NCBI GenBank assembly: GCA_964575755.1
Contig: CAZNRH010000001.1
Coordinates: forward strand, 181,347 to 224,396
Length of the DNA stretch: 43,050 bases
Direction: 5' to 3'
Source: an uncultured Candidatus Saccharibacteria bacterium
GTDB taxonomy: Bacteria; Patescibacteriota; Minisyncoccia; Phycocordibacterales; JABMNX01
A model generated the notes under the pieces. The model was not told the DNA's origin. It made no database searches and was given only the letters and a program-made list of their open reading frames with translations. A program made the translations under genes and the position numbers. Numbering within the stretch: the first letter of the stretch is position 1; the number at the start of each line of letters is the position of its first letter. Below, piece after piece: positions 6,810-42,947 of the stretch.

Positions 6810-7418
6810 TTACATACGGTTTTTGAGAGCGCTTTTAATTGTTTCTGTGTCGGAGTATTCGAGTTCTGAGCCTGTTGAAAGACCTCGTCCAAGGGTTGAG
6901 ACTTTTATATCAGTTGTAAAGATTATAGGCTCAAGCACTCTTTGAATATATTGTATGGTGTTTTCTCCTTCTGGATTTATCGAGAAGGCGAGTATAATCT
7001 CTTTTAATCCTTCTTTTTGGCGTGCTGTAACCACACGCTCTAACTCTTTTGTTCGTATCGATTTGTCAGGATCTTTGTCTAGAATCGGCACCGTCCCACC
7101 AACTACAAAATAGTATCCATCATACCCCTTAGCCCTTTCTATATTATCTAAGTCCACATCTTTCTCTACAAGCATGAGAGTGGAAGACTCTCTGTTTTTA
7201 TTCGCGCATATTAAACATAGTTCTTTGTGATTAGAATGAAAACGGCTACACATTGTACATGCTTTAGTATCATCTTTAATTGAACCAATAAGTCGTATTA
7301 ATTCACTTCTATAACTATGAGATGAAGAAAGTAAAAAATACACAAAGCGACTTGCTTGGCGTGGACCAATACCAGGTAATCGTTTTAAAAGTTCTGTAAG
7401 TTTTTGAATACTATCCAT
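6810..7418 (-). CDS. recR: recombination protein RecR
   Basis: N-terminal LPGIGPRQA helix-hairpin-helix, a C4 zinc finger (C..C....C..C) and a Toprim region. Confidence 0.9.
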   Translation of the reverse strand: MDSIQKLTELLKRLPGIGPRQASRFVYFLLSSSHSYRSELIRLIGSIKDDTKACTMCSRFHSNHKELCLICANKNRESSTLMLVEKDVDLDNIERAKGYDGYYFVVGGTVPILDKDPDKSIRTKELERVVTARQKEGLKEIILAFSINPEGENTIQYIQRVLEPIIFTTDIKVSTLGRGLSTGSELEYSDTETIKSALKNRM

Positions 7419-8932: not shown

Positions 8933-10447
8933 CTACTGCTTACTCTTAACCAGCTCAGGGCCATAGTCTGTATCAGAGACATCAAAGCCTTTTTTGGCTA
9001 ATTTTTCTCGTATTGAGTCTGCGGACTTCCAATCTTTATCTTTTCTTGCTTCTTCTCGTTTCTGTACGAGCTCTTGGATATCATCAGGTACTTTTTTCAC
9101 CTCTATTTTTTTTGTCTCACCTTTAAGCATAGTATCCATTTGTTTATATGATTCTATAAATCCAATACTCAATACACGATTCATGTCTAAAATCGTGACA
9201 CGTTTATCTTTCTTGTTTACAGATTTGTCACTCATTAGCTCGTGCAGGAGGGCTATTGATTGGGCGGTATTAATATCGTCATTAATAAACTTATGAAATC
9301 GCTCTTGGTATGAAGAGTTAATAGTGCCGTTTCGTGAACCGAGATCTAGAAATTGTTTATGAAGCTTGATAAGTGCTGTGTTGGCACCCTCAAGTGCCTC
9401 CCATGTGAAATTCATAGGTGAGCGGTAATGTCCTGTTAGTAACCAATAGCGGTATGTGAAGGCGGGGAAGCCTCTGTCTGCAAGGTGACGAAGATATATA
9501 GTATTTCCTTTTGATTTGCCAATTCTTTTGTTTTCTATGGTGATAAATGCATTATGCATCCAGTAATTTACAAATTTCTTACCGGTTACTGCTTCTGTTT
9601 GAGCTATTTCATTGTTGTGATGAATTGGTTTGTGGTCTAGTCCACCTGTGTGAACATCAAACTGTTTGCCTAAGTATTGTGAAGACATAGCACTACACTC
9701 TATATGCCAACCAGGGAAACCAACTCCCCATGGTGATTTCCATCCGAGTTCTTTACCAGAGTCTGTCTTTGTTGTTGAGAACTTCCAAAGAGCAAAGTCT
9801 TGCTGTGTGTGCTTGTCTTTTCTTTTTCCTATGCGAGAAATTGTATCTTCATCTTCTTTAGAAATACCACCAAGTGCTCCATAGTTTTTAAACATTTTTG
9901 TATCAAAATATACACCATCCTTAAGTGTGTAAGTGTAGCCTTTTTCTTCTAGGGTTTTTATAAACGCAATTTGCCCATCTATATGCTCACTTGCTCGCGG
10001 GAAAGCAAATGGTGTTTTGATATTCAACTCTTTTAAATCTTCTTTAAATTCTTTTATATATTTAGTACCAATTTTCTTCATCTCTGTGAGCGTGATAGAT
10101 AGGCCCTCTTTTTTAAGCGCAGTCATCATTTTATCGTCACCACTGTCTCCGTCTGACACAAGGTGTCCTACGTCGGTGATATTAATAATATGCTTCACTT
10201 TATAACCGTTGTATTCAAACATCCGCCTTAGTATGTCAGAGAATATATAAGAACGAAGATTACCTATATGAGCAGTGCTGTAAACTGTTGGCCCACAACT
10301 GTACATACTCACACCACCTTGTCTTATAGGCTCAAACTGCTCCTTCATTTTTGAAATAGAATTAAAAAGTCGTATTGGTGTCGACTTCTTTTTTACTGCA
10401 GAGTTATTATATTTTTTCTTAAATAACAAAAATAGGTCGAAATTCAT
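8933..10447 (-). CDS. cysS: cysteinyl-tRNA synthetase
   Basis: MYSCGPTVYSTAHIGNLRSY (HIGN) and a KMSKS-like RIGKSKGN motif, with class I CysRS architecture. The start is set at MNFDLF (10447), the element's 3' ATG, not the track's 10474. Confidence 0.9.
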   Translation of the reverse strand: MNFDLFLLFKKKYNNSAVKKKSTPIRLFNSISKMKEQFEPIRQGGVSMYSCGPTVYSTAHIGNLRSYIFSDILRRMFEYNGYKVKHIINITDVGHLVSDGDSGDDKMMTALKKEGLSITLTEMKKIGTKYIKEFKEDLKELNIKTPFAFPRASEHIDGQIAFIKTLEEKGYTYTLKDGVYFDTKMFKNYGALGGISKEDEDTISRIGKRKDKHTQQDFALWKFSTTKTDSGKELGWKSPWGVGFPGWHIECSAMSSQYLGKQFDVHTGGLDHKPIHHNNEIAQTEAVTGKKFVNYWMHNAFITIENKRIGKSKGNTIYLRHLADRGFPAFTYRYWLLTGHYRSPMNFTWEALEGANTALIKLHKQFLDLGSRNGTINSSYQERFHKFINDDINTAQSIALLHELMSDKSVNKKDKRVTILDMNRVLSIGFIESYKQMDTMLKGETKKIEVKKVPDDIQELVQKREEARKDKDWKSADSIREKLAKKGFDVSDTDYGPELVKSKQ

Positions 10448-10567
10448 CCCGTTAGAAATAAGACACAGAAACATATGTAACTGAGTATCTTATTTGGTTA
10501 TAATTTATAATATCGACTTCCATGTTCTTTTTAAGGTTAAGTGTCTGTGATTTCTAACGGGATTCAT
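10445..10567 (-). repeat. start-codon-anchored helix element, copy C5 (between the corA stop and the cysS start)
   Basis: The sense 5' arm ATCCCGTTAGAAAT (10550-10563) pairs perfectly with the 3' arm ATTTCTAACGGGAT (10446-10459). The second helix is AGACAC with GTGTCT. ATGAAT flanks both sides. The 5' ATG lies 15 nt after the corA stop. Confidence 0.85.
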
Positions 10568-10582
10568 ATGATAGGTTTTATA

Positions 10583-11515
10583 TTACAGCCAATGGTTTTT
10601 CTTGAAGAAGGTGAACATAAGTATGCCTGCAAATCCCATTATGCCCATAATGATCCAAAAATCAAATGGTCCTCCAATAAAAGGCATATGTACAGCATTC
10701 ATGCCAAACACAGAAGCAATAAGAGACAGGGGGAATGTCACGAACGCCATTATGGTGAGTACTTTCATAACCTCATTTTGTTTCGTGGAAAGCAGAGAAT
10801 TATTTGTGGCTCTTAACTCATGTAGTGTGTCTGAGTGGACAGAGATACTATTTTTAATCCTAAAGTATTCTCCCATAATAGAGTTTAAATGATTTGAGAA
10901 ATCTTCACCAAAAAATATTTTCCCAGCATCGTTAAATGAAGATAATATTTCTTGGTGCGGACTGAGGGCTTGTTTCAAATTAAGTAGGTCACGACTTACG
11001 TTAGAGATAGCAACAACCATTTCTTTTTCCTTACCTTCAAAGATGTCCTCTTCGATTATTTCGAGAGAGTCATCTATAAATTCTAGTTCGTGTTCTAAAG
11101 ATTTATAAAGTTTACGAACCATGTAGAAGAAAAGATAGCCAGCATGATCTCCAATATCGCTTTTATCTAAAACAGAGTTAACCTCAAATACTTTAGAAAA
11201 CTTGTGTAAAGGATCAACACTGTCATATCGTGTGGTAATGAGGAAGTTTTTCCCAATTATAAAATCTATCTCTTGGTTAATATCTCCATTGTGAGTATGT
11301 TTAAAAGCAGGGAAGTGTAAAATAAGATATATAAAGTTGGCATACGTATCAACACGTGGTTTAAGGGTAGGGAGCAGTAGCTCATCAGCAACAAGTGGGT
11401 CGATGTCATAATCGTCCATAATACTACGAACCTCCTCTGGGGTAGGAGATTCAACGTCGACCCATGTTAGGTGTTTATGTTTATAAACTGAAATCATTTG
11501 CTTAATTGTAAACAT
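10583..11515 (-). CDS. corA: magnesium/cobalt transporter CorA
   Basis: C-terminal two TM segments with the GMN motif (VFGMNAV) and a CorA-type cytoplasmic domain. Confidence 0.9.
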   Translation of the reverse strand: MFTIKQMISVYKHKHLTWVDVESPTPEEVRSIMDDYDIDPLVADELLLPTLKPRVDTYANFIYLILHFPAFKHTHNGDINQEIDFIIGKNFLITTRYDSVDPLHKFSKVFEVNSVLDKSDIGDHAGYLFFYMVRKLYKSLEHELEFIDDSLEIIEEDIFEGKEKEMVVAISNVSRDLLNLKQALSPHQEILSSFNDAGKIFFGEDFSNHLNSIMGEYFRIKNSISVHSDTLHELRATNNSLLSTKQNEVMKVLTIMAFVTFPLSLIASVFGMNAVHMPFIGGPFDFWIIMGIMGFAGILMFTFFKKNHWL

Positions 11516-12873: not shown

Positions 12874-12978
12874 AAGATATAACCTAGGCATGGTTATATG
12901 TTGACAGTGTTGTTTTGTTGCGTTGTTTTAAGTCTAAAAATAGCCTAAATGTTGTTGAGTGTGTATACTACCAAGCAT

Positions 12979-13099
12979 ATGAATCCCGTACGAAATTACG
13001 GACACAAAATCAAAACATGGAGAAAACGTCGATATTTAATAAAAAATTTAATCTAGAGACAAGGACTGTTTAAGTTCGTGTCCTATTTCGTACGGGATG
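12979..13099 (+). repeat. start-codon-anchored helix element, copy C3 (upstream of rplI); the best-preserved copy
   Basis: ATCCCGTACGAAAT (12983-12996) pairs perfectly with ATTTCGTACGGGAT (13085-13098). The second helix is GGACAC (13000-13005) with GTGTCC (13078-13083). Mini-ORF at 13017-13073. TATACT (12964-12969) lies 9 nt before the 5' ATG. Confidence 0.9.
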
Positions 13100-13540
13100 A
13101 AAGTAATATTACTCAGTGACGTGAAGGGTTCGGGGAAGAAATATGAAGTTAAGGATATTTCTGATGGATATGCTATGAACTTTTTGCTTCCCAATGGTCT
13201 TGCAGAGCGCGCTACACCTGAGCGTATAAAACGGATGGAAGAAATTAAAAAAGAACAGACACAAGAAGAACGTATTCAAGAAGATTTACTGGAAAAGACA
13301 TTAGCTTCTTTAAAAAGTGTTCACTTAGAAATAGAGGCAAAAGCAAGCGACAAAGGGGGTCTTTTCAAAGGTATTACAGTGGCTAATATAGTTGAGGAAT
13401 TAAAGAGACAGGTACGTGTTAATATTCCAGCTGAAATAATCGTATTGGAAAAACCAATTAAGGAAGTGGGAAAGTATACAATAGGAGTTTTAATGGGAGA
13501 AAATAAAGCCTCATTCAAACTAACTGTTTTGGCTAAATAA
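13097..13540 (+). CDS. rplI: 50S ribosomal protein L9
   Basis: [37 protein letters not shown] is a canonical L9 N-terminus, and the 147-aa length fits. Confidence 0.9.
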
Positions 13541-13598
13541 AGATTGAAAAATAAAAAACACTTATTATATAGTAAGTGTTTTTTATTTTTCAATCTTT
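13539..13598. terminator. 26-bp perfect inverted repeat with an 8-nt loop; bidirectional terminator between rplI and rpmA
   Basis: AAAGATTGAAAAATAAAAAACACTTA (13539-13564) pairs with TAAGTGTTTTTTATTTTTCAATCTTT (13573-13598). Verified base by base. Confidence 0.7.
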
Positions 13599-13609
13599 AT
13601 AATTATTTT

Positions 13610-14356: not shown

Positions 14357-14635
14357 ATGATTTAGCAGGATATTGTATTTACAGTAGGTGGATGGGTTTT
14401 TATTATTGCTCTAATACCGTCTCTTATGGGTAAAGATAAGCCCGCGTTCTCAACAAGTCTTATGGCTGGAACGATCGTGTTAATTTACGCATATACTTAC
14501 TTAACTCTTGGACTTTTTATTTCAGGTATAGTTGTTGGAATAAATGGACTTGTGTGGAGTGCTCTCGCTTTTCAAAAATATACATTAAACAAAAAACAAC
14601 AAGGATTAGTTAATCAAGAAGAAGTTAATAATTAA
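14357..14635 (+). pseudogene. small integral membrane protein gene with an in-frame TAG at codon 3 (14363-14365); the ATG-initiated remainder is 14426..14635
   Basis: The frame reads M-I-TAG-QDIVFTVGGWVFIIALIPSL-M-GKDKP... A hydrophobic helix is encoded upstream of the track's ATG, in the same frame as the promoter-proximal ATG. Confidence 0.4.
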
Positions 14636-14646
14636 TAATCAATACA

Positions 14647-16694: not shown

Positions 16695-16737
16695 AATAAA
16701 ATAAACGGCTGGAGTTACTCCAGCCGTTTATTTTATT
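16695..16737. terminator. 20-bp perfect stem with a 3-nt loop (AATAAAATAAACGGCTGGAG-TTA-CTCCAGCCGTTTATTTTATT)
   Basis: Verified base by base. Lies downstream of the transglycosylase gene. Confidence 0.75.
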
Positions 16738-23653: not shown

Positions 23654-23679
23654 AAATGCCACATGTGCCTGTGGCATTT
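23654..23679 (-). terminator. hairpin AAATGCCACA-(6 nt)-TGTGGCATTT
   Basis: 10-bp perfect stem downstream of the hydrolase pseudogene. It belongs to a family of related terminator hairpins in this window. Confidence 0.6.
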
Positions 23680-26229: not shown

Positions 26230-29200
26230 TTACTCTGTCGATGTTTCCGCTGATGCCTCAACTGTCACGGTACGAGTTACCTTATTGGCAATATTACCGG
26301 CAATGTCTGACACATTATAGATTACAGTGTACACCCCTGCAGTGGCAGTATCTACTGTGTTCTCCACCGTAACAGATGATGTGACATCACCATCAGTGTC
26401 ATCAAGAGCTGTCGCACCTTCATCAAAGTAGGTTTCATCTACAACAAGGATTATCTCTTCTTTACCAATAAGTGTGATGATGGGTGATGTGGTGTCTTTC
26501 ATAGTGAGTACAGTAACCGCCCTCGTAACCTCTGTTGCTTGATTGCCTGCAGCATCGGATACGTTGTAAGTGATAGTGTACACTCCTTCTGTATCAGTAA
26601 GTACACTGTCGCCCCCTATAATAATATTTGTAGTAATGTCACCATCTACATCATCTGTTGCCACAACACCTTCCTCTGTGTAACTATCTCCAACGTTAAG
26701 CTCAAAAGCATTTTCCGCATTGAGTGTAATTACAGGTGAAGTGATATCGACTGGAATATTATTTGATGAAGTACTAGAGGCAACACCTCCACCATTCTCA
26801 CTTGAATCATCTGCTTCTGTGTACGGATCATAGACAACCACTTGTCGCTCTGCTGTTGTTGTGTTTCCATCGTTATCAGTTGTGCGATAAATAATCGTAT
26901 ACGTGCCAACTTCTGATGTATCAATTTGAATATTGCTGAAATCGCCCACATCCACATCATCCACACTCGCATAAAGTCCAAGATTATTGCCCTTATCATC
27001 AGTAATGACAGCGCCGAGGTCAGAATATATAAATCCGACTTCAATTTCTGCTGGATTGTTGCCTAATATTGTTATTGTTGGAGAGATCAAAGAGGTATTA
27101 TTTGCGTCACTGGAATCTGTTCCGCCAGGAGTTGTTCCAGACAAAAGTGTTTTCAATTCTGTTAATTCTTTTTTGTTCAAGCATACTTCACCACCAGTAT
27201 CTCCTATACACAATTCCTCTTTTGCAATAATTCTACCAACCACTAATGTTCCGTCACTTTCTTGATCTGTTACGAATTCCTCTACTGTCCCAACAAGAGT
27301 AAGTGAATTCACTTGACCCTGCAGGACTTCAATCTGTTCCTGCTGATCTTGAATAGATTTTACCAAAAGTGGTGTAATCCTACCGTAATCAACACCCCAC
27401 AATTCATCACTTTCAAGTTTAGCAGATACAGCTTCTGGATATATTTCATAAAGTTCTTGAGCAATAAAACCTATTGTATCAATATCACTGGTCTTCATAT
27501 TGAAATCCCTAACCTTAATTTTAAGCAAATCTTCAAGCGTATAATGAGTATCGCGAATATTTTCTTTAGCTCGTCTATCAGAAGTTGTATTATAAACGAC
27601 TCCTCCTGCACCATCACCACTAATTGTCGCTATCATTGTATTATCACCATCAACAAACCCTACAAATTTAGTATTACTACCTGGATTGATGTTTGGACCT
27701 GTTCTAATATATATACCTGAAGCATAATCGTTCGTGCTGTCATTACGAAATACTGTCTGGAAACCAGCTGATTCGGTCCCAATAGAATTAAAATGCCCTA
27801 CAGAATCAATATCCACTTTCTTGACATTATTTGTCAAAAATTCAAGAATACCATCACCAGTACTGAACATCCCGCTATCCGTATCACCTGCAGAATCAAA
27901 AGTATATCCATTATTATTTACACCTCCCGCACCAGGGGTTCCTCCTCTTGCTCTTATTCCTCCCGTAACATCTAAGCTAACAGCTGGACTAACATTACTT
28001 ATTCCAACCTTTCCAGAACCAGCTCCTAGAATCAAATCACCCCACCCAAATCCTGGATTCAAAACATTAATATAACCTTTCATCGTTGATCCGTTAAATC
28101 CAAATCGTAAACCACTGTTGGTATCGGTATTATTTGAAATGATTACTTGTTGGTTGTCTGTGTCATTGCTAATATACTCTGGCACTTCTATCAATAAATT
28201 AGAAATAGAAGTTGTTGTGCCAATACTGACATATCCACTACTGTTTATCCTCATTCTTTCATTATTATTGGTATAAAATTGCAAAAGACCGTCCGAGGTG
28301 CTGAACATTCCACTATCCGTATCACCTGAAGAATCAAAAGCATATCCATTATTATTTACACCTCCCGCACCAGGAATTCCTCCTCTTGCTCTTATTCCTC
28401 CAGTAACATCTAAACTAACAGCTGGACTTATTGTCCCAATGCCTATTTTTCCGTCTTGTTGAAGAGTCAACACAGTTCCGCTTCCTGGATCATCAAATGT
28501 TGTGCTAATTTTTAATTTATGAGAATCGCTTGCGTCTGTTCCAAAACTCCAATCTGTGCTAATCAAGCCAGAATAAAAAGTTATATACTCGTCGCTAGTA
28601 GAATTATCTGGAGCATAAAATCTAAGCGATGCTTCACCACTTCCTATTTGTTCAATCTTTGAAATAAGATAATTATCGTCACCATAGATATGTAATTTTT
28701 CGTTAGGTGAATCCGTCCCAATTCCTACTTGTCCCTGCGTTGCATCCACAAACAATGCGTTGTAATTTATTCCTTCTGCCACTCTAAAATCACCCATTAT
28801 TTCCAATGGTGTGGCAGGGCTTGTTGTGCCAATTCCGACACGATTATTAAATGAATCAACAACCAATGTATTTGTATCGAATCGCGCGTCAGTGGCAAAG
28901 GTAGAAGTTGAGTTAAACCACGATTGTCCTGTGTTTGTAAGAAGTGTTGACGATGCATTACCTAATGTAGAAAGTCCTGTAAACCATGATGTCCCAGATA
29001 CTGAAAATTGTGTTGTGCTAGCATTACCAAAAGTAGCAAGGTTTGTGAACCATGATTTATCTGATACTGAAAGCCGAGTTGAAGATGCGTTACCCAAGGT
29101 TGTCAATCCAGTAAACCAAGAAAGTCCGCTGTTAGTTAATTGTGTTGTTGACGCATTGCCGAGAGTTGTTTGTCCGGATACCACTAAATATCCTGAAAGT

Positions 29201-30195
29201 GATTGATCGGTTGATGAGGCGGTAGTGAAAGCTGAATGACCTGCTATTTGCACAGTTGATGACGCATAAAATGCACCCTGAGACCACCACGGCATTGTAG
29301 AGCTTGCTGTTAAATTTGTTACTCCGTAGTTTGTCGCAAATGTCCAGTTTTCCTCAGCTGTTTTAACTATGTTGCCACTCCAATAAAGAACGCCCGCATT
29401 GTTGTAAAGAGCGTTAGATGTAACATCAGGTGTAGAACTTGAAATCAAAATACCTTCTGAAAAAGTGCTAGTGGCGGTAAAATAGGAATCACCAGAAACT
29501 GAGAATGTCGCAGACGGTGTTGTTGTGCCAATACCCAATCGCCCCCCCGAAGTAAATGTCAAAAGTTGTGTTCCTGTATCAGTAATAATACGAAATAAAT
29601 CAGCAACTTGACTGGCAAAGCCACGAATTACGAGGGGAGTCGCCGAAGTGGTTGTTGCTTCAACAGTTAGTTCGGCTGTCGAGAAAGGGGTTGTTGTTCC
29701 AACTACCGACTGACCTGTGCCAAAAACGTGATCAGAGGTAAATGCTTGCGCAGTAGCACCAATCCTTTGTCGCGGAGTCATCTCCGAATCAGACCCGACT
29801 GTTACACCCAGCCAATACGTGTCACCGGTAAAATCAAGAGTCATAGTATTACCCGTGCCCGAACCAAGAAGAACCCTAAAAAGCCCACTTGATAAAGAAA
29901 CAGCGTTACCGTTTGCTGTTGTATGAGTGCCTGTCCAGAGAGTAGTTCCACTTGTTGAGGCATCGTAAATACGAAATATTATATTGTAGTTGCCATCGGA
30001 AACATTTGCGCCTGTTGAGTCTTGTAGCACCCCCTGATATGGAATCTGTTTGTTAATGCCAGGAGCAGCCAAAGCAAATCCAGCAGGCATTATTGTTAAT
30101 ATTGTAAAAATAATTAAAACAAAACCAATTAAGAGTTTTTTACCCTTACTCTTGTAAGTTCTGATGTTTTTTAATCTTATGCTTTTGAGTTTCAA
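26230..30195 (-). CDS. 1321-aa tail-fibre-like surface protein: signal/TM, fibre-type repeats, an internal Peptidase S74 (intramolecular chaperone) domain, a coiled coil, and three C-terminal Ig-like (DUF5011-type) domains
   Basis: The S74 signature TSDRRAKENI...GFIAQELYEIYPEAV...GVDYGRITPLLVKSIQDQQEQIE spans aa ~872-965. There are three repeats of P.ITL.G...........Y.D.GA.A.DD.DG..T.........T...G.YT..Y.V.D..GN.A....R.V.V. The only in-frame start upstream of the signal peptide is a TTG (30195). Confidence 0.85.
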   Translation of the reverse strand: MKLKSIRLKNIRTYKSKGKKLLIGFVLIIFTILTIMPAGFALAAPGINKQIPYQGVLQDSTGANVSDGNYNIIFRIYDASTSGTTLWTGTHTTANGNAVSLSSGLFRVLLGSGTGNTMTLDFTGDTYWLGVTVGSDSEMTPRQRIGATAQAFTSDHVFGTGQSVVGTTTPFSTAELTVEATTTSATPLVIRGFASQVADLFRIITDTGTQLLTFTSGGRLGIGTTTPSATFSVSGDSYFTATSTFSEGILISSSTPDVTSNALYNNAGVLYWSGNIVKTAEENWTFATNYGVTNLTASSTMPWWSQGAFYASSTVQIAGHSAFTTASSTDQSLSGYLVVSGQTTLGNASTTQLTNSGLSWFTGLTTLGNASSTRLSVSDKSWFTNLATFGNASTTQFSVSGTSWFTGLSTLGNASSTLLTNTGQSWFNSTSTFATDARFDTNTLVVDSFNNRVGIGTTSPATPLEIMGDFRVAEGINYNALFVDATQGQVGIGTDSPNEKLHIYGDDNYLISKIEQIGSGEASLRFYAPDNSTSDEYITFYSGLISTDWSFGTDASDSHKLKISTTFDDPGSGTVLTLQQDGKIGIGTISPAVSLDVTGGIRARGGIPGAGGVNNNGYAFDSSGDTDSGMFSTSDGLLQFYTNNNERMRINSSGYVSIGTTTSISNLLIEVPEYISNDTDNQQVIISNNTDTNSGLRFGFNGSTMKGYINVLNPGFGWGDLILGAGSGKVGISNVSPAVSLDVTGGIRARGGTPGAGGVNNNGYTFDSAGDTDSGMFSTGDGILEFLTNNVKKVDIDSVGHFNSIGTESAGFQTVFRNDSTNDYASGIYIRTGPNINPGSNTKFVGFVDGDNTMIATISGDGAGGVVYNTTSDRRAKENIRDTHYTLEDLLKIKVRDFNMKTSDIDTIGFIAQELYEIYPEAVSAKLESDELWGVDYGRITPLLVKSIQDQQEQIEVLQGQVNSLTLVGTVEEFVTDQESDGTLVVGRIIAKEELCIGDTGGEVCLNKKELTELKTLLSGTTPGGTDSSDANNTSLISPTITILGNNPAEIEVGFIYSDLGAVITDDKGNNLGLYASVDDVDVGDFSNIQIDTSEVGTYTIIYRTTDNDGNTTTAERQVVVYDPYTEADDSSENGGGVASSTSSNNIPVDITSPVITLNAENAFELNVGDSYTEEGVVATDDVDGDITTNIIIGGDSVLTDTEGVYTITYNVSDAAGNQATEVTRAVTVLTMKDTTSPIITLIGKEEIILVVDETYFDEGATALDDTDGDVTSSVTVENTVDTATAGVYTVIYNVSDIAGNIANKVTRTVTVEASAETSTE

Positions 30196-34978: not shown

Positions 34979-36382
34979 TTAATATTCTTCAATGAATCTA
35001 GTAAGTAGTCTCACTGGTTCTCCAGCGGCTCCATTAGAGAGATTATCACTAGGTACTGTTGTCATGCGCGGTGCTATATCTATATGTGCCCATACACACC
35101 CCCTGGGATAGTTTTTTGTGAATTGGTATAGAAACATTCCTCCGTTAATAGCTCCTCCATATCTTGGGTTCTTTGTAGCGAGGTTAGCTACATCAGCTAT
35201 TCTTCCTTGTACACCTTCGTTATATTCCTCCCATAGAGGTAGTGGCCAAACATAGTCCCCTGTTTCCTCTCCAAATTGAGTAAGTTTTGCCACTAAATTA
35301 CTGTCTTGAGACATTACAACAGATGCTTGTTGACCTAATGCCACAAGAGATGCTCCTGTAAGTGTTGCTACATCTATAACTGCTTTTGGATTGTATTTCT
35401 TTGCGTATGTTAGTGCATCAGCTAATACAAGCCTCCCCTCCGCATCAGTATCTACTACTTCAATAGTTTTCCCTGACATAGATTTAAGTACGTCTCCTGG
35501 ACGAAATGAGCTTCCTGACACCATGTTTTCAACTGAAGGAATTAAAGCGATCACATTTTTCTTTAATTTAAGGCGCGCCACGAGTGCGATTGTCGCCATA
35601 ACTGCGGCACCGCCAGACATATCCATATGCATTCCGGATAACCCACCGCCTATTTTTAAATTAAGTCCACCGCTGTCAAAAGTAACTCCTTTACCTACAA
35701 GCACAATTGGTTTTTCGCTTTTCTTTCCACCTTTATATTCCATAACAATAAACTTCGGTTCTTCTGGTGAACCTTTTGCAACTCCAAGAATTGCACCCAT
35801 TTTTAATTTTTCTAGTTCTTTTTTACCAAGAGATGAAGTCTGTATTTTTGTATTTCTAGAAAGTCTTTTAGCGTGAGCTGTTAATATTCTAGGTGTCATA
35901 TCGCCACCCGGAGTGTTCGACATAAGTCTGCACTCGTTAACCATTTCTCCAATTACCCTACCTTTAGCTATACCTTTTTTAATTTCAGAACTTTTTACGT
36001 TTGTAATAGATATTTCCTCTATATCTCCCCAGCCTGCTTTTGGTTTAGTTTTAAAATCATGGAACTCGTAACCAGCCATCAGTAAATTTTGTGCAACAAT
36101 AGACCCGAGCTCTTTTGGAGCCAAGTTTGATATGTTTTTAAACTCATTAATATCTATAGATATCTTATTTACTTTATATAACTTGGCTGTTCGAACAACT
36201 CTCCTAATGACTTTTATAAATTTCCGGAAGTTATCTTTCTCTGCTTTTACTATCTTTATTTCAATTCTAGTTAGTTTTTTTGCATCCTCAATAAATCTAG
36301 TTTGCCCTTTTTCAGTGAAAGTTATTTGAGTTATTTTACTAGGTTGTTTTACAGTTTTTTTTTCTTGCGTAGTTATTTTCAT
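34979..36382 (-). CDS. pepA: leucyl aminopeptidase (M17)
   Basis: VGKGVTFDSGGLNLK and VDTDAEGRLVLADAL are M17 active-site motifs. The start is the 3' ATG of element C4. Confidence 0.9.
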   Translation of the reverse strand: MKITTQEKKTVKQPSKITQITFTEKGQTRFIEDAKKLTRIEIKIVKAEKDNFRKFIKVIRRVVRTAKLYKVNKISIDINEFKNISNLAPKELGSIVAQNLLMAGYEFHDFKTKPKAGWGDIEEISITNVKSSEIKKGIAKGRVIGEMVNECRLMSNTPGGDMTPRILTAHAKRLSRNTKIQTSSLGKKELEKLKMGAILGVAKGSPEEPKFIVMEYKGGKKSEKPIVLVGKGVTFDSGGLNLKIGGGLSGMHMDMSGGAAVMATIALVARLKLKKNVIALIPSVENMVSGSSFRPGDVLKSMSGKTIEVVDTDAEGRLVLADALTYAKKYNPKAVIDVATLTGASLVALGQQASVVMSQDSNLVAKLTQFGEETGDYVWPLPLWEEYNEGVQGRIADVANLATKNPRYGGAINGGMFLYQFTKNYPRGCVWAHIDIAPRMTTVPSDNLSNGAAGEPVRLLTRFIEEY

Positions 36383-36500
36383 CCCGATAGTAATAGGACA
36401 CCGACTTAAACAGTCTTTGTACTAAAATTAAACTTTTTGTTAATAATTAATTTTGTTTTCATATATTATGTTTATGTCCGTGATTTCGTACGGTATTCAT
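36380..36500 (-). repeat. start-codon-anchored helix element, copy C4 (between the aspS stop and the pepA start)
   Basis: The sense 5' arm ATACCGTACGAAAT (36483-36496) faces a partly decayed 3' arm ATTACTATCGGGAT (36381-36394). The second helix is GGACAT with GTGTCC. Mini-ORF at 36406-36462. The 5' ATG lies 10 nt after the aspS stop. Confidence 0.8.
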
Positions 36501-38864: not shown

Positions 38865-38894
38865 TTAAATGCCCCAAGTACCTGGGGCATTTAA
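38865..38894 (-). terminator. hairpin TTAAATGCCCCA-(6 nt)-TGGGGCATTTAA
   Basis: Perfect stem downstream of tyrS. It is related to the hairpins at 23654-23679 and 42915-42947. Confidence 0.65.
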
Positions 38895-42914: not shown

Positions 42915-42947
42915 CAAAAAATACCCCAAGTACCTGTGGCATTTTTT
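42915..42947. terminator. imperfect hairpin ATACCCCA-(6 nt)-TGTGGCAT flanked by A- and T-runs
   Basis: Differs at two positions from the hairpin at 38865-38894 and has the same AGTACC loop. Confidence 0.45.

Follow-up and report, generated by a model that had tools for sequence, protein, structure and literature searches.

Free-standing GIY-YIG homing endonuclease genes, such as the seg genes of T-even phages, are small ORFs that sit between host genes in multiple copies and with a patchy distribution. Within operons, termination-reinitiation coupling links genes whose stop and start codons overlap as ATGA or are closely spaced. MITEs such as Correia/NEMIS, ERIC, and RUP measure ~100–150 nt, end in inverted repeats flanked by a short duplication, occur in many copies without an enzyme of their own, are co-transcribed with neighbouring genes, and show presence/absence polymorphism, all of which they share with the family described here. 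In a 2024 review of prokaryotic MITEs the phrase "start codon" does not occur, nor are CPR bacteria mentioned (PMC10969869). Rickettsia palindromic elements (RPEs) are palindromic repeats of ~100–150 nt that persist in reduced genomes through compatibility with host-gene translation (PMC10969869), and the rRNA genes of CPR bacteria carry GIY-YIG ORFs in non-intron insertions as well as many short (<200 bp) uncharacterised insertions (PMC11270868).

Here we describe C5, an element located between corA and cysS in a 43-kb stretch of DNA (hereafter the window), and compare it with these systems. C5 is short and lacks an enzyme gene of its own, bears terminal inverted repeats, is flanked by a duplication for which empty sites exist, and has many dispersed relatives, as MITEs do. 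The family to which it probably belongs differs from MITEs as follows: the insertion point is exactly the start codon, with the element always oriented like the gene; the duplicated ATG opens a reading frame that closes at a stop within the 3' repeat; and a GIY-YIG nuclease gene, not a DDE transposase, is the apparent partner. RPEs are in-frame peptide insertions inside ORFs, for which neither a nuclease partner nor an ATG duplication has been described, whereas the CPR family forms a separate upstream mini-cistron with its own stop, placed on the start codon. The CPR nuclease genes resemble seg-like genes in being small inserted nuclease ORFs, multi-copy and patchily distributed, but they are bounded by 14-bp inverted repeats that encode their own termini, start at a duplicated host ATG, and end in a TGA overlapping the host ATG; the CPR family also has non-coding miniature derivatives, and its targets share only ATG, with no long homing site. 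As in termination-reinitiation coupling, the stop lies 4 nt before, or overlaps, the next ATG, and this downstream ATG has no Shine-Dalgarno sequence; however, the upstream cistron comes from a mobile element and its product has no evident function. The rRNA-gene insertions share the host group, the GIY-YIG ORFs, and the short length, but they lie inside rRNA genes, and the paper mentions neither inverted repeats nor ATG duplication nor a start-codon context for them (PMC11270868). Literature searches by sequence, by CPR combined with repeats, MITE, or start codon, and by GIY-YIG combined with CPR returned no published description of the family.

Table 1. Coordinates of C5, its parts, its neighbouring genes, and the sister copies in the window.
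Feature	Position	Strand	Remarks
C5, whole element	10443..10567	-	ATGAA at both ends
cysS	8933..10447	-	Host gene, start codon targeted by C5
corA	10583..11515	-	Gene upstream of C5
5' copy of duplicated ATGAA	10563..10567	-	Original cysS start-codon position, 15 nt after corA stop; relatives L105-L108 have one ATG, element absent
Inserted C5 core	10448..10562	-	115 nt, TCCCG...CGGG; TTAG-type miniature element with frameshift; missing from syntenic relatives
3' ATGAA copy	10443..10447	-	ATG 10447-10445 is the working cysS start codon; CysS homologues span 99-100% of the ORF
5' terminal inverted repeat (outer helix arm)	10550..10563	-	ATCCCGTTAGAAAT
3' terminal inverted repeat (outer helix arm)	10446..10459	-	ATTTCTAACGGGAT; includes TAA (10454-10452) and A and T of the cysS ATG
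Inner arm AGACAC	10541..10546	-	Partner GTGTCT; alternative register CACAGA with TCTGTG
Inner arm GTGTCT	10461..10466	-	
Short ORF 1	10505..10567	-	From 5' ATG, MNPVRNHRHLTLKRTWKSIL*; family ORF truncated by frameshift
Short ORF 2	10452..10523	-	Internal ATG, family's conserved frame, MEVDIINYNQIRYSVTYVSVSYF*; TAA 4 nt before cysS ATG
Sister copy, GTACG type	1802..1923	+	On start codon (1919) of P-type cation ATPase gene
Sister copy, GTACG type	4616..4739	+	ATGGA at both ends; on rmuC start codon (4735)
Sister copy, comparison copy C3 of the first-pass annotation	12979..13101	+	On rplI start codon (13097); Pfam L9 N-terminal domain from residue 1
Sister copy, chimeric arms	36378..36500	-	5' GTACGAA, 3' TACTATC, 5 mismatches; on start codon (36382) of M17 aminopeptidase gene

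On the minus strand, C5 reads ATGAA-TCCCGTTAGAAAT-CAC-AGACAC ... GTGTCT-T-ATTTCTAACGGG-ATGAA, and its arms (Table 1) form the perfect terminal helix of 14 + 6 bp that the first-pass annotation had recognised, with 14/14 outer and 6/6 inner positions complementary. That annotation had also claimed three compensatory double changes relative to C3, whose arms are ATCCCGTACGAAAT and ATTTCGTACGGGAT with the inner pair GGACAC/GTGTCC, and a strong divergence of the core. Both claims were borne out: an A-T pair becomes T-A, a C-G pair A-T, and a G-C pair A-T, both strands being altered each time, and C5 aligns with the remaining window copies chiefly through the arms.

C5 is an insertion, as shown by empty sites in syntenic relatives and by the duplicated ATGAA. 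At the DNA level only the elements aligned between the window and the fetched loci, and synteny was then located via CysS homologues. In four syntenic relatives (gene order rplI-S41 peptidase-corA-cysS-dnaB-recR; CysS 70–89% identical), corA and cysS are separated by 5–37 nt with one ATG, where the window has ATGAA[115 nt]ATGAA, and the rplI site shows the same pattern, again empty in four syntenic relatives. The 5' ATG of C5 (10567-10565) does lie 15 nt past the end of corA (10583), where the first-pass annotation would have expected a tightly packed downstream cistron to begin, and it is the duplicated cysS start codon. C5 lies between two copies of a start codon and contains stops, and is not an in-frame insertion within a gene.

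The element family is specific for start codons. When flanks were left free in the search, the 3' junction was ATG in 53/54 metagenome elements, and 39/54 had identical 5-nt flanks, including rare ones (ATGCG, ATGTA, ATGAT) as well as ATGAG, ATGGG, and an 8-nt ATGGCCGA. In an HMM census of 83 distinct copies from CPR genomes and metagenomes, most of the data being metagenome-assembled sequences, the 3' junction was ATG in all but one (82/83), and this ATG opened an ORF of at least 100 codons in 65 of the 76 evaluable copies, compared to 16% for random ATGs. An HMM search of the 43-kb window yielded exactly five copies, and in 5/5 the 3' ATG is the in-frame start of a real gene. A supposed degenerate sixth copy at 14613-14637 was not recovered by this search and is not an element. 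The window copies, C5 included, are 115–125 nt long and hold only short ORFs with no GIY-YIG catalytic domain, and no GIY-YIG nuclease gene was found across the window. We consider it probable that C5, now decayed, is a non-autonomous copy from a mobile-element family that occurs across CPR (Patescibacteria) bacteria and whose insertions fall exactly on start codons, oriented like the gene.

The arms of this family fall into several matched types. Among 75 elements retrieved with the central arm bases left free, 39 had perfect TTAG/CTAA arms and 16 perfect GTACG/CGTAC arms. Arms were perfect in 60/75 elements, which come from hosts of 37–55% GC and have almost unalignable interiors; the search patterns fixed parts of the arms, which biases the arm-mismatch statistics. 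The 120-nt family contains at least five compensated arm types (GTTAGAA/TTCTAAC, GTACGAA/TTCGTAC, GATAGTA/TACTATC, GTTCAAA/TTTGAAC, and GTTAGTA/TACTAAC), and nuclease-encoding relatives add three further variants (ATACCG/CGGTAT, ATCCCG/CGGGAT, and ACCCCG/CGGGGT), which contradicts a single recent duplication as the source of the matched arms. GTACG arms are present on many unrelated interiors. In blastn searches, the nearest matches of C5 were TTAG-type elements from other CPR genomes; its four sister copies in the window grouped with a different family. The three apparent compensations of C5 are likely to reflect its membership in the majority TTAG subfamily, its neighbours belonging to the GTACG subfamily. 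The direction of change that had been proposed, from C3 to C5, is wrong: arms with CGTTAG/CTAACG are the majority type in CPR bacteria, and C5 is of a separate subfamily. What was described as a terminal helix consists of the two terminal inverted repeats of the element, which match each other in all subfamilies, that of the 95-aa GIY-YIG genes among them.

A selected RNA structure, whose compensations would reflect RNA function, seems an unlikely main reason for the terminal helix and may coexist with mobility. Such a helix could mask the host start codon until opened by translation upstream, place the 3' AUG beside the upstream initiation region, or be a site of RNase III processing. It is both the minimum-energy and the centroid structure of C5 as predicted by RNA folding (z-score -3.45; 1/200 shuffles equally stable), RNAalifold detected six pairs changed on both sides, the orientation of the element is always that of the gene, and all three arm mismatches of copy 1802-1923 are G:U. 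Sense-strand G:U was favoured over A:C mismatches at the unconstrained positions in the centre of the outer helix (8 vs 2) and in the inner helix (17 vs 10), but this excess is small, gives a weak strand-specific signal, and does not take C-to-T bias of the coding strand into account. Conservation peaks in the arms and is low between them, as expected of a mobile element and not of a riboswitch. RNAalifold predicted the terminal helix alone, in one or the other of two registers, and no conserved interior helices; in Rfam 15 the element had no match, whether at the gathering threshold or at permissive ones. The host genes are functionally unrelated (ATPase, RmuC, L9, CysS, and M17 peptidase in the window; PheT and glycosyltransferases elsewhere) and do not form the single functional class expected for a cis-regulatory RNA. 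The gene behind copy 36378-36500 is still intact in spite of five arm mismatches. In 5/5 distinct nuclease cassettes, moreover, the arms are matched 14/14 although they stand ~260 nt apart across a translated ORF. Given that the ends of mobile elements covary too, covariation alone is no proof of a functional RNA helix; what is supported is that the arms are kept complementary. A similar caution applies to genome scans in general, in which compensated inverted repeats at the ends of repeat families are no evidence of RNA structure.

The mobile-element reading raises the question of the partner enzyme. Genes for 95-aa GIY-YIG nucleases have the same ends and the same start-codon junctions as the miniatures, with the domain found in relatives L034, L109, L117, and L118 (L034:3349-3636 matches Pfam GIY-YIG with E = 6.7e-14). 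The arms encode the N-terminus MNPVRD and the C-terminus RFLSLTG* of this family, which has at least 3000 members. Sequence common to miniature and nuclease elements amounts to only about 16–20 nt per end. We infer that these putative nuclease genes could be the autonomous partners that mobilise the miniatures. A conventional (DDE-type) transposase that our searches did not find could instead move C5 as an ordinary miniature inverted-repeat element, with the GIY-YIG genes as cargo or as a separate lineage sharing the ends. Such a transposase would suit the terminal inverted repeats, short flanking duplications, many copies, and presence/absence polymorphism, and CTAG, a target classically associated with transposases, flanks a related family (L070:3870-3967); GIY-YIG nucleases are not known to create target duplications. 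Even so, we regard this explanation as improbable: in about 0.8 Mb of CPR loci no transposase gene was bounded by these ends, the only coding elements with these ends encode solely the 95-aa GIY-YIG protein, with the repeats encoding its first and last residues, and the duplication varies from copy to copy (4, 5, or 8 nt), which is unusual for a single transposase. The varying duplication, the shortness of the shared ends, and the absence of a nuclease gene from the window also weigh against the explanation preferred here.

Insertion duplicates the start codon and about 2 nt (ATGNN); the duplication can be read equally well as TGNN, with the A or G of the start codon restored by the last base of the element. 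The original initiation context of the gene is retained at the 5' copy; it often consists of a -10 box 6–8 nt upstream, implying a leaderless transcript, or of the stop codon belonging to the upstream cistron. A TAnnnT box was present 5–9 nt before the 5' ATG at 33/54 sites (15% in shuffles), and a Shine-Dalgarno-like motif at only 3/54. In the main class, an ORF of 37–39 codons begins at the 5' ATG; its TAA lies within the 3' arm, and 4 nt separate it from the ATG of the gene. Stops fall at -7 or +1 relative to that ATG, and the lengths of TTAG-type elements cluster at 118/121/124 nt. The frame of the 5' ATG was open in 28/31 copies, as opposed to 1/31 and 0/31 for the other sense frames, and openness persisted even with interiors of 23–30% GC. 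In intact elements the ORF from the 5' copy spans the whole element and ends at the TAA before the 3' ATG or at an overlapping TGA, where ribosomes may terminate and restart on the host gene, so that the insertion would be nearly harmless. This putative translational relay through the element to the host gene is less clean in the present genome. C5 is down one base net, with 120 instead of 121 nt from ATG to ATG, which breaks its ORF into two short ones, the second still terminating 4 nt ahead of the cysS ATG. In the other four window copies an internal ATG is used, and the stop lies 26 nt upstream of the ATG of the gene or overlaps it.

The open frame could alternatively belong to a conserved small-protein gene (MNPVRNHGH...SVSYF, 38 aa) with a functional product and an incidental inverted repeat. 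This is very unlikely. Length changes do occur in 3-nt steps, a motif xVxFIxxNxIG is partly conserved, and the arm change from TTAG to TACG leaves Val-Arg unaltered (GTT AGA and GTA CGA). However, pN/pS in frame (0.77) was about the same as out of frame (0.81 and 0.85), the ORF is broken in about 60% of copies, including 5/5 in the window, it is the repeats that encode the conserved residues, and the profile matched only two database proteins. The openness of the frame is conserved, but not the peptide. Least credible is a mere founder effect, in which arms would match through recent copying without constraint: subfamily copies inside one genome do share arms by descent, but perfect arms on almost unalignable interiors, in at least eight distinct compensated variants, contradict it.

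With slightly more doubt than confidence, we propose a broader reading, in which GIY-YIG genes and their 120-nt miniatures would make up an undescribed class of selfish elements in CPR bacteria, transposing onto start codons, often leaderless 5'-terminal AUGs, and relaying ribosomes to the host gene via a repeat-borne stop. If true, this would represent a third "stealth" strategy beside introns and inteins, one in which the target is a functional landmark, the start codon, and not a sequence motif, and in which the architecture spares the gene that is hit. It would suggest a role for the thousands of 86–95-aa "GIY-YIG nuclease family" proteins in CPR genomes, and would point to widespread leaderless, Shine-Dalgarno-free initiation and efficient reinitiation in CPR translation. 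For CPR annotation, start sites in the hundreds are affected by a 40-codon decoy ORF, an N-terminal extension, or a change from ATG to GTG.

Several known identities were rejected for C5 and its relatives. An integron attC site requires the inverse core RYYYAAC on the 5' side and the core GTTRRRY on the 3' side, which are reversed here (GTTAGA 5', TCTAAC 3'), and the motif is absent from GTACG-type arms. IS200/IS605-type palindrome-associated or REP elements would have subterminal hairpins at each end, with neither terminal inverted repeats nor target duplication, whereas the repeats here are terminal and mutually paired, and a host pentamer is duplicated. The architecture of a Xer/dif-like site does not match, and site-specific recombination with a fixed core was ruled out by rare flanking dinucleotides that are identical on both sides. 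Consensus scans for internal outward promoters or terminators gave hits at chance level.

GIY-YIG is not a known transposase. In-frame fusion of an element to its host gene was rare, being seen once (L054:2690). Flanked by pheS and pheT, one nuclease gene overlaps each of the two through an ATGA.

C5, the element copy between corA and cysS, is an insertion on the cysS start codon. Four relatives keep the gene order rplI-S41 peptidase-corA-cysS-dnaB-recR (CysS identity 70-89%), with a corA-cysS gap of only 5-37 nt. At the cysS site, the closest relative (comparison locus L105) reads ...aaaaccattt ATGAG TTTCAAC and the window reads ...aaaacctatcat ATGAA[TCCCG...115 nt...CGGG]ATGAA TTTCGAC; at rplI, the corresponding sequences are ...gactacat ATGAAAGTAATAC and ...ccaagcat ATGAA[...]ATGAAAGTAATAT. 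Repeat finding, alignment and HMM search agree on exactly five copies in the window, all oriented like their downstream gene, and an Rfam search of the element matched no family. The in-frame start of the downstream gene is the ATG in the 3' end of the element (...CGGGATGRA) in 5/5 copies, and ATGRA also opens the 5' end of every copy (5/5). In rplI, residue 1 is the first residue of the Pfam L9 N-terminal domain.

Element copies and other repeats and motifs in the window
Feature	Position	Strand	Remarks
Element copy	1802-1923	+	upstream of P-type ATPase gene
Element copy	4616-4739	+	upstream of rmuC; ATGGA at both ends
Element copy C5	10443-10567	-	upstream of cysS
Element copy	12979-13101	+	upstream of rplI
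Element copy	36378-36500	-	upstream of M17 aminopeptidase gene
TATACT/TATAAT-like box	1785-1801; 12950-12978		no Shine-Dalgarno
AT-rich palindromes	6763-6804; 13537-13600; 16695-16737		perfect or near-perfect, arms 21-32 nt, at gene ends
PyrG-leader match (Rfam)	6763-6832		sub-threshold (E = 0.012)
26-nt palindrome	23654-23679; 38867-38892; 42919-42944		intergenic; AAATGCCCCAAGTACCTGGGGCATTT
189-nt direct repeat	27826-28014; 28264-28452		83% identical; within 1321-aa ORF 26230-30195

Start codons are the usual residence of this element. Scanning metagenomes without constraint on either flank yielded 66 loci, with 54 distinct elements. The 3' junction is ATG in 53 of the 54, the 5' flank has ATG at -5 to -3 in 41, and the two flanking pentamers are identical in 39, including the rare ATGCG, ATGTA (twice), ATGAT, ATGAG and ATGGG; one has an 8-nt flanking repeat (ATGGCCGA), and a few have just 4 nt common to both flanks. 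An HMM census over all collected loci found 83 distinct full-length copies, with the junction ATG in 82. Downstream of it, 65 of the 76 evaluable copies have an ORF of 100 codons or more, versus 16% of random ATGs. The duplication has two parses, either ATGNN or TGNN, in which case the start codon begins with the last base of the element. The latter is favoured by a nuclease-bearing family with C...G termini (ACCCCG/CGGGGT; L118:729-1015), given that its host glycosyltransferase starts with GTG, not ATG (junction ..CTAACGGGG/TGAAAATC, encoding MKIGIV). Insertion sites vary among related genomes: the close relative L107, without elements at its cysS and rplI sites, carries a partial element with a TACTATC-type 3' arm at another gene start near rplU (7104-7217, minus strand). 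Similar ends do not always go with a start-codon target: a related ~100-nt element (L070:3870-3967; ends TACCGTTACAAGT) has CTAG flanks instead of ATG.

On the minus strand, from 10567 to 10443, C5 reads ATGAA-TCCCGTTAGAAAT-CAC-AGACAC ... GTGTCT-T-ATTTCTAACGGG-ATGAA. Its outer arms (ATCCCGTTAGAAAT and ATTTCTAACGGGAT) are complementary at 14/14 positions and its inner arms (AGACAC and GTGTCT) at 6/6, and RNA folding gave this terminal helix as both the minimum-energy and the centroid structure (z = -3.45). Compared with copy 12979-13101 (outer arms ATCCCGTACGAAAT/ATTTCGTACGGGAT, inner arms GGACAC/GTGTCC), C5 has three arm differences, every one matched on the opposite arm. This agrees with the first-pass annotation, which had described a perfect 14 + 6 bp helix with three compensated differences and placed the 5' ATG of C5 15 nt past the corA stop. 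The direction of change that it gave, from copy 12979-13101 to C5, did not hold because, by blastn, the nearest relatives of C5 are elements of other genomes with TTAG-type arms. The four remaining window copies group with a different family, and the window genome houses two coexisting element subfamilies. Copy 36378-36500, with a GTACGAA-type 5' arm, a TACTATC-type 3' arm and five mismatches, looks like a recombinant of the GTACG and GATAGTA/TACTATC subfamilies; the downstream gene is intact.

A genome scan (one genome per species; 3' motif with central bases free) gave 35 loci. The full element was present in ~22, all of them from the candidate phyla radiation (CPR; Saccharibacteria, Paceibacterota/Parcubacteria, Kaiserbacteria and Lloydbacteria), and the non-CPR matches had no 5' arm. 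CysS homologues group the window organism with Paceibacteria-type CPR bacteria. CGTTAG/CTAACG arms, as in C5, are the majority type, with 39/75 elements of perfect TTAG type and 16/75 of perfect GTACG type. GTACG arms occur on numerous unrelated interiors, and the window family clusters together with the GATAGTA/TACTATC family.

One recent duplication, the origin that would make the covariation uninformative, does not explain the matched arms, which are maintained across many lineages in at least eight compensated variants, counting nuclease cassettes; this part of the earlier interpretation stands. Such matching would, however, be expected if recognition of both ends falls to one protein or one DNA hairpin form. 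Strand-specific support for an RNA helix is confined to the arm mismatches, among which G:U modestly outnumbers A:C (8 vs 2 and 17 vs 10, uncorrected for coding-strand mutation bias). The TTAG to TACG arm change is synonymous in the 5' ORF (GTT AGA to GTA CGA). Covariation is also seen in an alternative register (CACGGAC[R]C paired with G[Y]GTCCGTG around a 4-nt bulge), which can be read as an RNA switch or as an inverted repeat that is longer and in two parts.

In TTAG-type elements, the ATG-to-ATG distance is mainly 121 nt, with smaller groups at 118 and 124 nt. Of these 31 copies, 28 have an open frame from the 5' ATG, compared with 1/31 and 0/31 for the other sense frames, and likewise in interiors of just 23-30% GC. 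At these three distances the frame reads MNPVRNHGH-x-EVDFIxxNxIG-x-SVSYF-stop, the stop being a TAA within the 3' arm (ATTTC-TAA-CGGG-ATG), 4 nt ahead of the gene ATG. At 119 or 122 nt the reading ends ...LFLTG-stop, its TGA sharing bases with the gene's ATG, and in the single 126-nt case (L054:2690-3547) in-frame read-through produces a 42-aa N-terminal extension (..CPISNGM-KNLL). In the same glycosyltransferase operon, L054:2109-2693 encodes a 194-aa protein whose N-terminus (MNPVRKNW...) comes from a solo 5' arm. The mini-ORF keeps openness and phase, not the peptide: interior pN/pS was 0.77 in frame and 0.81 and 0.85 out of frame, and its profile matched only 2 proteins in a large protein database.

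A TAnnnT box lies 5-9 nt (mostly 6-7) before the 5' ATG at 33/54 sites versus 15% in shuffles, and a Shine-Dalgarno-like motif at only 3/54. This box fits leaderless mRNAs, whose 5'-terminal AUG the duplication would preserve, and suggests that such mRNAs are common in these CPR bacteria. TATACT/TATAAT-like boxes without Shine-Dalgarno, 6-9 nt ahead of the ATG, also lie upstream of elements in L010-L102, and precede rplI and cysS of relatives. The remaining insertion sites, C5 among them, lie downstream of an upstream cistron. A translational relay is plausible, in which ribosomes would start at the 5' ATG copy, translate the mini-ORF, stop beside the 3' ATG copy and restart on the host gene. 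This putative relay is degraded in the AT-rich window genome. Each of the five window copies has a 17-28-codon ORF starting from an internal ATG at 38-44 nt; relative to the gene ATG, the end of this ORF lies 26 nt or (in C5) 4 nt upstream, or 8 nt downstream. C5 has lost one base, net.

Families of other lengths have the same outermost TCCCGTTAG and ATGAA flank. One of these, L034:3349-3636, is an ORF of 95 aa in which Pfam recognises a GIY-YIG catalytic domain (E = 6.7e-14). This protein family has at least 3000 members, in Kaiserbacteria, Paceibacterota and Minisyncoccia, annotated as "GIY-YIG nuclease family protein" and nothing further, and the repeats encode their N-terminus (MN[PTA]VRD) and C-terminus (RFLSLTG-stop). 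One such gene sits between pheS and pheT with an ATGA overlap at each junction, and others are flanked by methyltransferase and glycosyltransferase genes. Arms were complementary at 14/14 positions in 5/5 distinct cassettes, with three compensated variants. We infer that these genes are candidate autonomous partners of the miniatures; no GIY-YIG gene of this kind was found in the 43-kb window. At L074:861-1242 and L097:46-418, a degenerate GIY-YIG gene is directly followed by a miniature element (tandem or nested), and in protein P0224 a fragment of another protein is followed, in one fusion, by a short element and a GIY-YIG domain.

Structurally, the element is a MITE, but it differs from described MITEs in its start-codon target, fixed orientation and built-in putative relay ORF; in a 2024 review of prokaryotic MITEs, the phrase "start codon" is absent and CPR are unmentioned (PMC10969869). 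Like Rickettsia palindromic elements it is compatible with translation, but it is not inserted in frame. The nuclease relatives are similar to free-standing GIY-YIG homing endonuclease genes, from which their inverted repeats, duplicated ATGs and miniatures set them apart. Our literature search did not find a description of this CPR start-codon element family. It is a CPR-wide mobile element family resident on start codons, apparently undescribed, for which a translational relay and a nuclease partner are plausible. Insertions other than introns in CPR rRNA genes include ones that encode GIY-YIG proteins, and many further insertions there are short (<200 bp) and uncharacterised (PMC11270868); these might belong to the same superfamily, with a terminal helix allowing excision from rRNA.

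Among the other repeats in the window, the 26-nt palindrome forms another small repeat family that resembles terminators or REP sequences, and the AT-rich gene-end palindromes are probably bidirectional terminators. The 189-nt direct repeat points to an internal protein repeat.
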